A stretch of DNA of 64,000 nt from positions 1,054 to 65,053 of the forward strand of contig DYFM01000007.1 of the NCBI GenBank assembly GCA_020725175.1, given 5' to 3'. Under the pieces are notes generated by a model. That model had not been told where the DNA came from and ran no database searches. It saw nothing but the letters and a program-made list of their open reading frames with translations. Below, in pieces: positions 13,781 through 16,543 of the stretch. The DNA comes from Candidatus Paceibacter sp. Lineage in GTDB: Bacteria > Patescibacteriota > Patescibacteriia > Magasanikbacterales > UBA922. The position numbers and the translations under genes were made by a program. Within the stretch, counting starts at the first letter, position 1, and each line of letters starts with the position of its first letter.

Positions 13781-16543
13781 ATGCCAAATGATGGGTTAGG
13801 TAAAAGAAGAAGAAGATTGGTTCGGGATATTGAAGAAGAAAGGCGCTCTTCCGATGAACCAACAACTAAGGGTGAATCTTCTCCAAAAGTACCACCAGCA
13901 GAGAATAGTGGTACTAAAGGTGCTCGTATAGAAAAAAGGCAAAGAACTGCCACTAAAGAGCTACCAGAAAAAAAAGTTGTGCCTTCTGTAAAAGAACAGC
14001 TTGAAGAAGGAGTGCTACGTCTTTCTGAAGTCTCTGGAGACGAGACACTTTATTCTCACCAGGAAGCTATCATGGTTGATGTCGTAGATTATCTTCGTGA
14101 AATAATTAAGAGAAAAAAGAAACCATCTTTGGACACAGAATCATTCCATTACGCACGAATTGTAGCCGCACCAAGAACAGGTAAAACGCGTATTGCCGCT
14201 GAAATAGTTCGTCGTACTGGAGTAAGAATTGTATACTTAGTTCCTGCTCTGAATTTAGTAGAACAAGCAATAAAAGAGTTTCGAGACCATTTAGGGACAC
14301 AGATAAACATTGCAGCTTATACAGGTAGAGATAAAAAAGATGTTTCGGGGGCTCATATTATCATTGGCACGTATCAAAAAGCACAAAAACAAGGAGAAAT
14401 AGGTAAAGATCTTCCCGAAGAATTTCACCAAGCAGGTATTGTTTTTCTTGATGAGGGGCATACATCGACTACCGAACAGCGAACAGAAATGCTACGAAAA
14501 GCGTTTTCTCCCGAAGCTGTTAAAATAGCTTTAACCGGCACACCCGACTATAGTGAAGAGCGACTACTTGAAAGGTATTATCCTGTTTTAATACATGAAC
14601 TTAGTATTCCAGAAGCGTATGAGTTAAATATGTACGCTCCTTTTCAATACAGTATTATCGAAATGGATCGAGATGCCTCGCATGTATCATCTGAGGGAGA
14701 GGATTTTAATTCAGAAGAACTAGGTGAAATATATACTCAAATTCCTGTACTAGAATTGGCATACCGTTTACGTAAGATAACCCAGACAATGGCTAATACT
14801 CCAGCTCTTATAACATGCGCCAGTGTAAAACAGGCTAATTTACTACAGCAGTACATGGAAGAAAAAGGTATTTTGTCTGAGCTCATTACTGGAACGATAG
14901 ATAAAAATCATAGAAAAAAAATTCTTGATAAATTTGATAGAGGTGAAGTTGATACTCTTATTACTGTTAAAGTTTTAACACAAGGATGGGATTCTCCGCG
15001 ATGTAAGTACCTTATTGATCTAGCACCAACTTTTTCACCTGTTTTGGCCCAACAAAAATATACACGACCACTCACTAAAACTGATAATAAACAGATAGCC
15101 ACTATTGTTACGGTTGTCCCAAAAAACCTTCCGGTTGAACCGATTTTTCCAGGAGAGGTTTTTTCATTAGAGGAAGATATTGTTTTGCCACCTGGAAGAA
15201 TCATGTCACCGGATAAAGAGATTCAGAAACCCCAAAACGAAGAATATCAATTACCTTCAATTGATAATCTTACGGTTCGATTAGTGGCTGATCTACAAGA
15301 TTTTCACTTTATGGCAAGAAAAGAATTGGTAGCTTCACCCCACACTTTACGATCAATTTTGGAGACCGGATTAAGGCAATTTTCCAGAAATGCTAAAGAA
15401 AAAAAACTCATGCTTATTGCACTATTAGCGAGTCGTTTCAATTTTAATAGAACGCACTTTTCTCACGAGTCATTTGTTGGTAGCGGTCGAGTTTTGTTGA
15501 GGAGATTGGGATTTAAGAGTACTGATGAAGGGTATACGCAGTTTTTGTATGCTTTTTTTCCTGAGGAAGCAGCTACAATTTTTCTTTTTAAAGATCAACT
15601 ACAAAACTATCGTTTTCTTTCTACTAATCGACTGATGCGATTATTAAGACAAGAAGAGAGTGTTAATTTGCGTTCTACTACAAGTGATTTGATGACTATT
15701 AATCGGGGATTACTGAGTGGTGATCAAAAAGTTAGAAATAATGCAGCAGCGGCAATGGAAATCCTTTCTCAGGGTGGTAACGAAACTCATTTGTATTCAA
15801 ATCGTGCAGAAAGTTTACTTGATCCAGAACATCCTGCTGAGGATTTGTTTGTTCAACATACGCTTCTTCCAACGGTAGTTAATGATTTGGGTGAAAGGGA
15901 TATGAAATATCTAAGAGAAAGGGTACTGTTAGGTAAAACATTAGATGAAACCGGAAAAGTACTGGATGTTTCACGTGAGAGAGTGAGACAGAGAGTTGCA
16001 ACTCTTCTGTCTAGAATGAAACATAGGTTAGAGTTGATGATGAAAGCATCTTCTGAGATAAAAAGTGATCAGGTTGAAAGTTTCCAACTGAAAAAAACAT
16101 GGTCCGAAAATTTTTTGTTTATAGGAAATTTTATGCTTGAAGCAGGTAGAGAATTGCATCATATTTTTAATGAACAGCTGCCTGATCATGAAGTTTTATT
16201 TTTCCATAATGAGTTTAGTAAGACTGTTAAAAATGTAATAATGTTTATGAATGAGATTGGTAGTTTATCACTTAAAATTGCCGAACTATATGAGAAAGAA
16301 AATATTTCTGATTATTATCAAGAATTAAGGGATAAACTATTTACTTTACAAAATTTGATGAGTGAAATGCAGAAACAAGAAGAGATATTACAAATAAAAG
16401 TGCAAAGTGTTATTCAGCAAAAAAACTATCCCTGGGTATTGGCTCTGCACGTAGAGATGCAGAAGTTTTTTTCTCAACAAAAAAAAATCAAAAATTTATT
16501 TCTGCAAGTTTGGTCTCGTTTATATGAAGCGCGTAACCTATAG
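13781..16543 (+). CDS. SF2 (DExH/ResIII-like) helicase fused to a C-terminal sigma-70 region-4-like HTH domain
   Basis: Walker A AAPRTGKTRIA, motif II FLDEGH, motif III LTGTPD, helicase-C block LITVKVLTQGWDSP. Near residue ~730, LGKTLDETGKVLDVSRERVRQRVATLLSRMK closely matches sigma-70 region 4.2 (TLEEIG..[12 protein letters not shown].KLR). Confidence 0.6.
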   Translation: MPNDGLGKRRRRLVRDIEEERRSSDEPTTKGESSPKVPPAENSGTKGARIEKRQRTATKELPEKKVVPSVKEQLEEGVLRLSEVSGDETLYSHQEAIMVDVVDYLREIIKRKKKPSLDTESFHYARIVAAPRTGKTRIAAEIVRRTGVRIVYLVPALNLVEQAIKEFRDHLGTQINIAAYTGRDKKDVSGAHIIIGTYQKAQKQGEIGKDLPEEFHQAGIVFLDEGHTSTTEQRTEMLRKAFSPEAVKIALTGTPDYSEERLLERYYPVLIHELSIPEAYELNMYAPFQYSIIEMDRDASHVSSEGEDFNSEELGEIYTQIPVLELAYRLRKITQTMANTPALITCASVKQANLLQQYMEEKGILSELITGTIDKNHRKKILDKFDRGEVDTLITVKVLTQGWDSPRCKYLIDLAPTFSPVLAQQKYTRPLTKTDNKQIATIVTVVPKNLPVEPIFPGEVFSLEEDIVLPPGRIMSPDKEIQKPQNEEYQLPSIDNLTVRLVADLQDFHFMARKELVASPHTLRSILETGLRQFSRNAKEKKLMLIALLASRFNFNRTHFSHESFVGSGRVLLRRLGFKSTDEGYTQFLYAFFPEEAATIFLFKDQLQNYRFLSTNRLMRLLRQEESVNLRSTTSDLMTINRGLLSGDQKVRNNAAAAMEILSQGGNETHLYSNRAESLLDPEHPAEDLFVQHTLLPTVVNDLGERDMKYLRERVLLGKTLDETGKVLDVSRERVRQRVATLLSRMKHRLELMMKASSEIKSDQVESFQLKKTWSENFLFIGNFMLEAGRELHHIFNEQLPDHEVLFFHNEFSKTVKNVIMFMNEIGSLSLKIAELYEKENISDYYQELRDKLFTLQNLMSEMQKQEEILQIKVQSVIQQKNYPWVLALHVEMQKFFSQQKKIKNLFLQVWSRLYEARNL

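Follow-up and report, generated by a model that had tools for sequence, protein, structure and literature searches.

What would a DNA motor do with the promoter-reading domain of a sigma factor? The question is raised by one gene in a stretch of 64,000 nucleotides from Candidatus Paceibacter sp. (assembly GCA_020725175.1, contig DYFM01000007.1, positions 1,054 to 65,053), which we call the window. The gene lies at positions 13781 to 16543 of the window on the forward strand, as do all parts of it described below, and in the list of open reading frames (ORFs) it encodes 920 amino acids plus the stop. Its product joins a superfamily 2 (SF2) helicase, a middle module, and sigma-70 region 4. We propose, at a probability of roughly 40%, that the protein is a translocase of double-stranded DNA that region 4 tethers to −35 elements and/or the polymerase flap, where it would remodel transcription complexes like RapA, Mfd, or Mot1.

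A family of helicases that carry sigma-70 region 4

We found that the ORF runs through its 920 codons without interruption, and the identical protein (P0001) is present in public collections on two contigs, the longest being 237 kb. The protein has four parts, namely, the SF2 core (residues 89 to 446), the middle module (498 to 605), a variable linker, and region 4 (692 to 751). Local hidden Markov models (HMMs) place the helicase at residues 89 to 446, the middle module at 498 to 604, and region 4 at 692 to 751.

We then defined a family, as yet unnamed, by the presence of a ResIII helicase core, a middle module with the signature F.H.LF.G.G..LLR.LG, and region 4, in this order. A first homology search gave 24 relatives with 29 to 38% identity, mostly with ResIII and Sigma70_r4. 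When the family profile was run exhaustively with HMMER against 1.84 billion representatives, 684 proteins matched at an E value of <1e-30, and the top ~130 of these matches run end to end. A word-indexed search for a deeper alignment gave no new members, whereas the exhaustive search did find more. The window protein itself scores 759 bits against the family profile. All three modules are found in order in 126 of 164 family representatives clustered at 50% identity, and most of the others are short fragments. Since this layout recurs in so many representatives that are only distantly related (~30% identity), the fusion is no accident and lies far beyond chance. A Pfam census of 60 members detected ResIII in 59 and Sigma70_r4 in 48 (best E value, 3e-18).

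The preliminary description of this DNA, made from the sequence alone, knew of no described combination of a translocase and a −35 reader. Our searches agree with this. In the full-text literature searched, no account of a helicase-region 4 fusion came up, and the databases label members generically, as "DEAD/DEAH box helicase family protein" or "RNA polymerase sigma factor." The middle module and the existence of a family had not been noted in that description.

The source names of members point to Patescibacteria, including Candidatus Uhrbacteria and an ACD aquifer genome. Amino acid composition spans a range from AT-rich at one end to very GC-rich at the other. One member, P0046, is on an NCBI contig of 12.8 Mb, and another, P0012, is on a contig of 1.0 Mb. 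Members are thus present in Patescibacteria as well as in bacteria whose genomes are large and GC-rich, and the breadth of composition together with the 12.8-Mb contig indicates that the family is widely but thinly spread. No relative was found among the IMG/VR viral contigs. We rejected a phage origin on this ground and because the matches to phrog_16 and phrog_351 reflect just a generic helicase and region 4; the match of phrog_16 (DNA helicase) to the window protein reaches 1e-50. The suggestion of a phage-derived primase-helicase-like regulator is likewise not supported, as Pfam finds no primase domain in the protein.

The ends of the protein are less constant. The first 88 residues (13781 to 14044) form a charged stretch of low complexity, with many K, R, E, S, and P residues and no Pfam domain match. 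The motif RRRRLVRDIEEERR in this region is common to the window protein and P0006 (alignment A1), and its recurrence supports this start codon. Two close homologs, P0002 and P0005, have an N-terminal extension of ~400 residues that aligns between them and has no Pfam match. The C-terminal tail (residues 752 to 920; 16034 to 16540) is variable in the family, with ≤15 residues following region 4 in 37 members and >60 in 61 members. In the window protein, Pfam gave no significant similarity for this tail. A second copy of region 4 was considered there and rejected, as none appears even at relaxed thresholds.

The helicase core resembles motors that act on DNA

The SF2 helicase/translocase core is of the ResIII/DExH type (14045 to 15118). 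Pfam ResIII matches residues 91 to 256 (E value, 4e-15), Helicase_C matches residues 330 to 426 (E value, 4e-12), and the DEAD and SWI2_SNF2 models match the same core. The motifs GKT, DEGH, TGTP, and QGWDSP, read earlier as a full DExH/ResIII set, are all present. GKT, motif I or Walker A, is at residues 134 to 136 (14180 to 14188), with G134 and K135 invariant in 60 members. DEGH, motif II, is at residues 224 to 227 (14450 to 14461), where D224 and E225 never vary and at least 90% of members keep H227. Motif III, TGTP, is at residues 252 to 255 (14534 to 14545), and T252, T254, and P255 are each conserved in at least 90%. The motif V region, QGWDSP, is at residues 401 to 406 (14981 to 14998), with G402 invariant and W403 conserved in at least 90%. 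To these we add motif VI, QQKYTR, at residues 424 to 429 (15050 to 15067), whose arginine finger, R429, never varies in the 60 members and in which at least 90% of members keep Q425 and K426.

Motifs I, II, III, and VI, the last with its arginine finger, on two RecA-like domains place the protein in the ResIII/DExH group of SF2, and these motifs are invariant or nearly so across 60 to 126 members. The invariance of G134, K135, D224, E225, G402, and R429, together with the near invariance of motifs III and VI, argues that the ATPase is under selection. From this conservation of catalytic motifs, the motor looks active.

Among solved structures, the window protein matches the SauUSI helicase (7clg) at 1e-19. 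The family profile matches SauUSI (7clg) at 2.4e-25, archaeal XPB at 1.5e-23, and RadD at 6e-19, and it also matches Rad25, Hef, and a type I restriction R subunit. Because the nearest solved relatives, SauUSI, XPB, and RadD, act on DNA, the protein is predicted to be a DNA motor, most likely one acting on duplex DNA. We found, nonetheless, that it belongs to neither the RadD nor the XPB family, since its scores are far under the NCBIfam cutoffs (RadD NF053632, 47.9 bits versus 720; XPB NF045503, 32.5 bits versus 610). XPB and RadD supply the closest helicase cores after SauUSI, but neither the XPB damage recognition domain nor the RadD C-terminal domains were detected in the window protein.

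SauUSI-type enzymes offer the best solved core match, and the closest relatives just outside the family (P0026 to P0032) share their architecture, being restriction-type helicases with a phospholipase D (PLD) nuclease and DUF3427. In contrast, the window protein lacks both the N-terminal PLD nuclease and the C-terminal DUF3427. Pfam found neither PF13091 (PLD) nor PF11907 (DUF3427) in the window protein or in the 60 members, and the census of those members detected no nuclease or other effector domain. In PADLOC, the best match is likewise of the SauUSI type, and all matches are confined to the generic helicase core.

Region 4 is of primary-sigma origin

We found that residues 692 to 751 (15854 to 16033) form a sigma-70 region 4, comprising regions 4.1 and 4.2, by Pfam, hhalign, Foldseek, and tblastn. 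An almost textbook region 4.2 had been pointed out near residue 730. This helix-turn-helix (HTH), LGKTLDETGKVLDVSRERVRQRVATLLSRMK, lies at residues 717 to 747 (15929 to 16021) and carries the −35-reading R, E, R, R, and Q. Pfam Sigma70_r4 matches residues 702 to 748 with 29.7 bits, above the curated cutoff of 24.1 (E value, 4.4e-7). We aligned the family profile, built from the 126-member C-terminal alignment, by hhalign to E. coli sigma-70 residues 375 to 613 (identical to 4jk1_X), and region 4 matched with 98.2 to 98.8% probability and E values of 3e-14 to 5e-17. By phmmer against the PDB, residues ~700 to 750 align with region 4 of SigB, SigA, and RpoD, and the 4.2 HTH TLDETGKVLDVSRERVRQRVATLLSRMKH aligns onto the counterpart segment of E. 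coli. A tblastn search of the window with sigma-70 gave a sole match, at 15875 to 16024, and we found no other sigma-family gene in the window.

Structure prediction gave the same answer. In an AlphaFold model of residues 446 to 775, region 4 has a predicted local distance difference test (pLDDT) score of 91 to 97. By Foldseek, it superposes on isolated sigma domain 4 structures, namely, on 4g6d with a template modeling (TM) score of 0.72, an rmsd (root mean square deviation) of 2.1 Å, and 40% identity and on 3hug with a TM score of 0.80 and an rmsd of 1.5 Å; 6onu and 3vfz also superpose. The segment thus folds as sigma domain 4, not as a generic HTH, and Pfam gave no match to GerE/LuxR-type models among 60 members. 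Neither of the outcomes named in the preliminary description as refuting a sigma region 4 was therefore seen, and its structural reading holds.

Three features indicate which kind of sigma factor the domain came from. First, the best PDB matches of the family's region 4 are the primary sigmas SigA and RpoD, at 1e-16 to 1e-20; P0121, a member, shares 42% identity with sigma-70 across 122 aligned columns and is much closer within region 4. Second, the recognition residues are retained. Equivalents of the −35-reading residues are kept as follows among the 126 members: R586 in 107, R588 in 80, Q589 in 80, E585 in 71, and R584 in 57. The window protein holds the equivalents of all five. T572 is kept in 86 members and is Ser in 24 more, and R554, R562, and R599 are kept in 84, 75, and 96 members, respectively. 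From this pattern, the DNA-reading face of region 4 is under selection. Third, 15 of the 126 members show the far-C-terminal tail pattern of primary sigmas, 13 of them unambiguously (RHPSRS..LR.F), and most of these 13 terminate on the tail, as sigma-70 does. For example, P0119 ends in KLRHPSRSKLLRSFVSQE, and sigma-70 ends in KLRHPSRSEVLRSFLDD. Taken together, these data show that region 4 derives from a group 1 (primary) sigma factor. Helices H1 and H2, which make up region 4.1, are present in all members, and the window protein and its closest relatives have four to five residues fewer in the loop that joins 4.1 to 4.2.

Sigma regions 2 and 3 are absent

Several alignments extended beyond region 4, and we considered a hidden region 2 or 3 and rejected it. 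The phmmer alignments to RpoD ran over query residues 524 to 749, the top Foldseek matches were whole sigma factors over 250 to 330 columns (E value, 2.5e-3), and in a few members BLAST extensions reached sigma-70 residues 382 to 491. The BLAST extensions are gappy and carried by the region 4 score. None of the extensions adds significance, and hhalign aligns region 4 only, reaching no further than sigma-70 residues 531 to 605 even at permissive settings. Aligned alone to sigma-70, the linker and the middle module score 0.3% and 0.2% probability, respectively. Pfam found no Sigma70_r2 or Sigma70_r3 in the window protein, even when the C-terminal half was scanned alone at E values of up to 10, and the census found neither in any of the 60 members. 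The earlier remark that no region 2 is present is therefore borne out by Pfam, hhalign, and fold searches alike. Because regions 1.2, 2, and 3 are absent, −10 recognition and clamp-helix binding in the manner of a sigma factor are impossible.

The middle module has no match in the libraries searched

Between the two known domains lies an orphan middle module (residues 498 to 605; 15272 to 15595), delimited by the local HMM and AlphaFold. It has the signature F..L.F.H.LF.G.G..LLR.LG....Y..FL...FPE. Modeled alone, it folds into six helices and a beta hairpin with a pLDDT of 86 and a predicted TM score of 0.74. We found no Pfam match and no match of its profile to PDB sequences (best E value, 0.33). 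The fold matched none of 350,542 PDB chains (best E value, 1.4; TM score, <0.3) and nothing in BFVD. Those chains include hundreds of sigma structures, none of which matches the module. The variable helical linker that follows (residues 606 to 691; 15596 to 15853) is modeled with low confidence (pLDDT, 39 to 68) and measures 47 to 104 residues among homologs.

A translocase that region 4 may address to promoters or polymerase

Isolated region 4 is described in the literature as binding the −35 element and the beta flap tip, and because these are its known partners, we propose that it targets the motor to promoters or polymerase. According to this model, region 4 would be the address label of a self-contained, ATP-driven duplex-DNA translocase. 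It would bind −35-type hexamers, the beta flap-tip helix, or both, and either contact would bring the SF2 motor next to the polymerase, onto the upstream DNA of the promoter. ATP hydrolysis would then pull or push the upstream DNA, so that transcription complexes are remodeled, displaced, or recycled. The motor could also clear promoters to which region 4 is bound, and the orphan middle module would serve as a family-specific adaptor. The evidence for a link to polymerase is indirect and consists of the 4.1 helices in all members and the far-C-terminal tail in 13 of 126. The conservation of the fusion in very different genomes, the lack of an obligatory partner gene at 11 loci, and the relative P0179 described below also speak for the model. 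That tail, in primary sigmas, sits in the beta-flap hook of RNA polymerase and has no DNA-binding role (literature). Of the three functions guessed at in the preliminary description, a transcription-associated remodeler is the best supported, although it is still something we infer.

Both end domains, and motors that associate with polymerase, are already known; what appears to be new is the fusion and the orphan domain. RapA (HepA), a Swi2/Snf2 ATPase of E. coli, is the clearest precedent for a polymerase-targeted motor. This SF2 ATPase docks on the beta flap-tip helix of the core enzyme and is excluded by sigma; with ATP, it promotes polymerase recycling (PMC8501970). It competes with sigma because the flap-tip helix is the site used by region 4. 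However, RapA makes its flap contact through its ATPase core, has N-terminal domains of its own, and has no sigma-derived domain, whereas the window protein is ResIII/XPB/RadD-like rather than SNF2 proper, has a borrowed region 4 as its predicted attachment, and carries the orphan middle module. The SNF2 model PF00176 matched 1 of 60 members (2e-4), not the window protein, and RapA was not among the best 25 of 33 NCBIfam matches.

Mfd is similar in being a polymerase-tethered translocase on upstream duplex DNA, and repair genes adjoin two family loci. It differs in having a RecG-type motor with a TRG motif, a polymerase-interacting domain that binds beta elsewhere, and a UvrB homology module. 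No Mfd-specific Pfam domain was found in the window protein, Mfd was not among the best 25 of the 33 NCBIfam matches, and RecG models matched with just 14 to 23 bits against cutoffs of 659 to 995.

A primary sigma factor shares homologous regions 4.1 and 4.2, very closely in some members, with the −35 residues kept and the tail in 13 of 126; in contrast, regions 1.2, 2, and 3 are absent from the family (60 members scanned). XPB, in turn, is a double-stranded-DNA translocase used at eukaryotic promoters. Mot1/BTAF1 is a Swi2/Snf2 ATPase that strips TATA-binding protein from TATA boxes with ATP, and it resembles the proposed arrangement in that a motor is coupled to a module recognizing a promoter-bound initiation factor or its site. 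Mot1 is eukaryotic, however, its recognition module consists of HEAT repeats, and there is no sequence kinship; a single family member, P0177, is seen to add HEAT repeats. To our knowledge, Mfd, RapA, HelD, Rho, and UvrD use docking devices of their own, and none borrows the docking or promoter-reading domain of sigma.

Related architectures

Two relatives show what else this helicase lineage can be joined to. P0177 (948 amino acids [aa]) has the helicase, a weak middle module, a region 4 ending in the tail RHPSRSKRLRAY, and ~200 residues of C-terminal HEAT repeats. P0179, whose helicase core is 26% identical (E value, 5e-31), consists of a ResIII helicase, three repeats of ~90 residues, and a complete RpoD-like sigma. 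The sigma part has region 2.3/2.4 (FSTYAYQWIRQGI), region 3.0 (IRLPSYM), and full regions 4.1 and 4.2, and Pfam scores its regions 2 and 4 at 7e-14 and 1e-13. The gene was seen in two assemblies (L012, 1057 to 4212; L013, 553 to 3708). We considered P0179 as a Rosetta stone fusion and rejected the idea, as there is no sigma gene near its closest relative, P0182. An 85-aa ORF with a weak Sigma70_r4 match lies 3.5 kb downstream of the P0179 gene (L012, 7723 to 7980, forward strand) and may be a free-standing region 4 protein.

P0179 cuts both ways. It shows that fusion of this helicase lineage to a bona fide sigma can occur, and it also shows that the C-terminal slot commonly hosts interchangeable DNA-binding modules.

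Genomic neighborhood

In the window, the order of genes is a cupin, a broken methylpurine glycosylase, the helicase gene, a small membrane-like ORF, and a 1,454-aa protein. The neighbors in the window with coordinates given here are all on the forward strand. The methylpurine-DNA glycosylase (Pfam Pur_DNA_glyco; 13229 to 13755, forward strand) is directly upstream of the helicase gene. An in-frame TAA interrupts it near 13265, as does a frameshift near 13600, and its halves fall in the ORFs at 13292 to 13687 and 13450 to 13755; it is a pseudogene or a sequence error. The 1,454-aa protein (17275 to 21639) has M23 peptidase and lamin-tail domains and resembles the giant surface proteins that are common in Patescibacteria. 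At 5.6 kb downstream of the helicase gene, RecQ is split into two adjacent ORFs, with the helicase core and RecQ zinc-binding domain at 22165 to 23430 and RQC, HRDC, and HTH_40 at 23444 to 24331. Upstream, at 1109 to 10386, is a defense-like cluster with a Fic protein, hsdM (2288 to 4303), hsdS (4308 to 5570), and hsdR (6638 to 9634). A PIN_12 protein is inserted before hsdR (5572 to 6654), and the cluster ends with a HARE-HTH protein that has a weak, subthreshold PD-(D/E)XK match (9649 to 10386). The type I restriction cluster is 4 to 11 kb upstream of the helicase gene. Promoter-like matches around the helicase gene were not commoner than in shuffled sequence.

We compared these surroundings with those of homologs. 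A conserved operon partner was rejected, as 11 homolog loci share no neighbor. Opposite-strand genes often border the family gene, which is thus a self-contained unit. At the housekeeping end, the surroundings of homologs include cell wall genes, tsaD/tsaE, mraZ/rsmH, and uvrC; at the accessory end, they include toxin-antitoxin pairs, IS66 TnpB, a PLD-helicase fragment, and Ser/Thr kinases. A Cupin_2 protein of 128 to 131 aa is just upstream of the family gene at two unrelated loci (window, 12747 to 13133, forward strand; P0009 locus, 6341 to 6736). The upstream cupin and the nearby repair genes, each at two loci, are too few to count. At one locus, uvrC (L006, 5871 to 7298, forward strand) and the 3′ end of P0006, the family gene, share 32 nucleotides (nt), an overlap that suggests cotranscription in that genome. 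At another, a 453-aa ORF with PLDc_2 and Helicase_C, a SauUSI-like fragment (L003, 6697 to 8058, forward strand), overlaps the 5′ end of P0017 by 58 nt.

Alternative explanations

The strongest competitor is that the protein is a site-targeted helicase of repair, recombination, or defense, in which region 4 is a mere DNA-binding HTH without polymerase contact. The motor would then act like RadD, XPB, or a type IV restriction translocase at sites chosen by the HTH. We consider this somewhat unlikely, although several observations speak for it or weigh against a polymerase-tethered remodeler. P0179 alone bears a sigma within a large family of Patescibacteria helicases with repeated HTH-type modules. 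Because this sister family has ordinary, generic HTH repeats at the same position, region 4 may be one more interchangeable DNA-binding domain. A sigma-type HTH has been reused as a plain DNA binder in the defense ATPase BrxL (PMC12839542). The family is rare and patchy, with ~150 to 200 clusters among 1.84 billion representatives, a distribution more in keeping with accessory or horizontally moving genes than with core transcription machinery. Restriction, toxin-antitoxin, or mobile genes surround some loci. Most members, the window protein included, are without the H5 tail. In the tethered model itself, binding to polymerase or to −35 DNA, the polarity and substrate of the translocase, and the outcome of remodeling are inferred. 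The competing explanation draws further on the resemblance of the helicase core to SauUSI, XPB, and RadD, on the PLD-DUF3427 restriction-type helicases that are the next relatives outside the family, and on the repair or restriction genes near some loci (uvrC in L006, the glycosylase and RecQ in the window, and the PLDc_2-Helicase_C ORF in L003).

On the other hand, the 60 members have no nuclease or effector domain, and the 11 loci have no common partner. The entire region 4 is retained, including the polymerase-contacting 4.1 helices, rather than the HTH alone, and 13 members retain the flap-binding tail. The recognition residues also stay primary-sigma-like across phyla, whereas arbitrary target sites would predict diversification.

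An anti-sigma or decoy role, which had also been raised, is possible. In its anti-phage form, the domain would mimic the host sigma surface, and capture of a phage protein would activate the motor or shut it down. Region 4 is indeed a target of phage proteins, such as T4 AsiA, and 4g6d, among the best structural matches, is phage G1 ORF67 with S. aureus sigma-A domain 4. The family is patchy across unrelated phyla, and about 3 kb separates the window gene from a type I restriction cluster that includes PIN, Fic, and HARE-HTH proteins. MzaA (NF041931), a sigma-like protein of the MZA defense system, matches weakly, with 22 bits against a cutoff of 800 and coverage of just residues 633 to 749. 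However, neither an effector domain nor a conserved partner was found, the PADLOC matches come from the generic helicase core only, and several loci are plainly housekeeping (cell wall genes, tsaD/tsaE, and mraZ/rsmH). We therefore regard such an anti-phage guard as very improbable.

Two further ideas give the motor a part in initiation. In the first, a long shot, the protein would be an ATP-powered promoter factor without region 2. Region 4 would sit on the −35 element and the flap, and the XPB-like translocase would reel or twist DNA, either opening the promoter as TFIIH does or evicting holoenzyme as Mot1 does, with the middle module as a new polymerase or DNA contact. In the second, which we think scarcely credible, the protein would be an unconventional initiation factor. 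Either region 4 would anchor at the −35 element and the flap while an XPB-like motor opens the promoter with ATP, or the protein would be one part of a split sigma that works with a separate region 2 protein. XPB is the promoter-opening motor of TFIIH, and split sigma factors are known in B. subtilis (SigO-RsoA) and T4 (gp55/gp33). The helicase resembles XPB, and in P0179 a helicase of this type is linked to a complete sigma. In contrast, we found no region 2 gene nearby in the window or at the 11 loci, and nothing in the protein resembles −10-binding or core-binding determinants. Moreover, bacterial polymerase with sigma-70-type factors opens promoters without ATP.

An artifact, whether a decaying pseudogene or an error of assembly or frame that merged two adjacent genes, is effectively refuted: the stop and frameshift in the glycosylase immediately upstream do mean that this stretch is not error-free or is decaying, but the 920-codon frame is intact, the identical protein occurs on two contigs, and 126 independent clusters share the architecture with conserved catalytic residues.

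Implications

If a tethered translocase is the correct interpretation, the family would represent a new means of directing a DNA motor to promoters or to the site where sigma binds polymerase. If region 4 is merely DNA binding, the family still documents the recruitment of a core transcription domain into other DNA transactions. In either case, it supplies a confidently folded domain of 110 residues without a fold match in the libraries searched, and it occurs notably in Patescibacteria, in which the regulation of transcription is almost unexplored.

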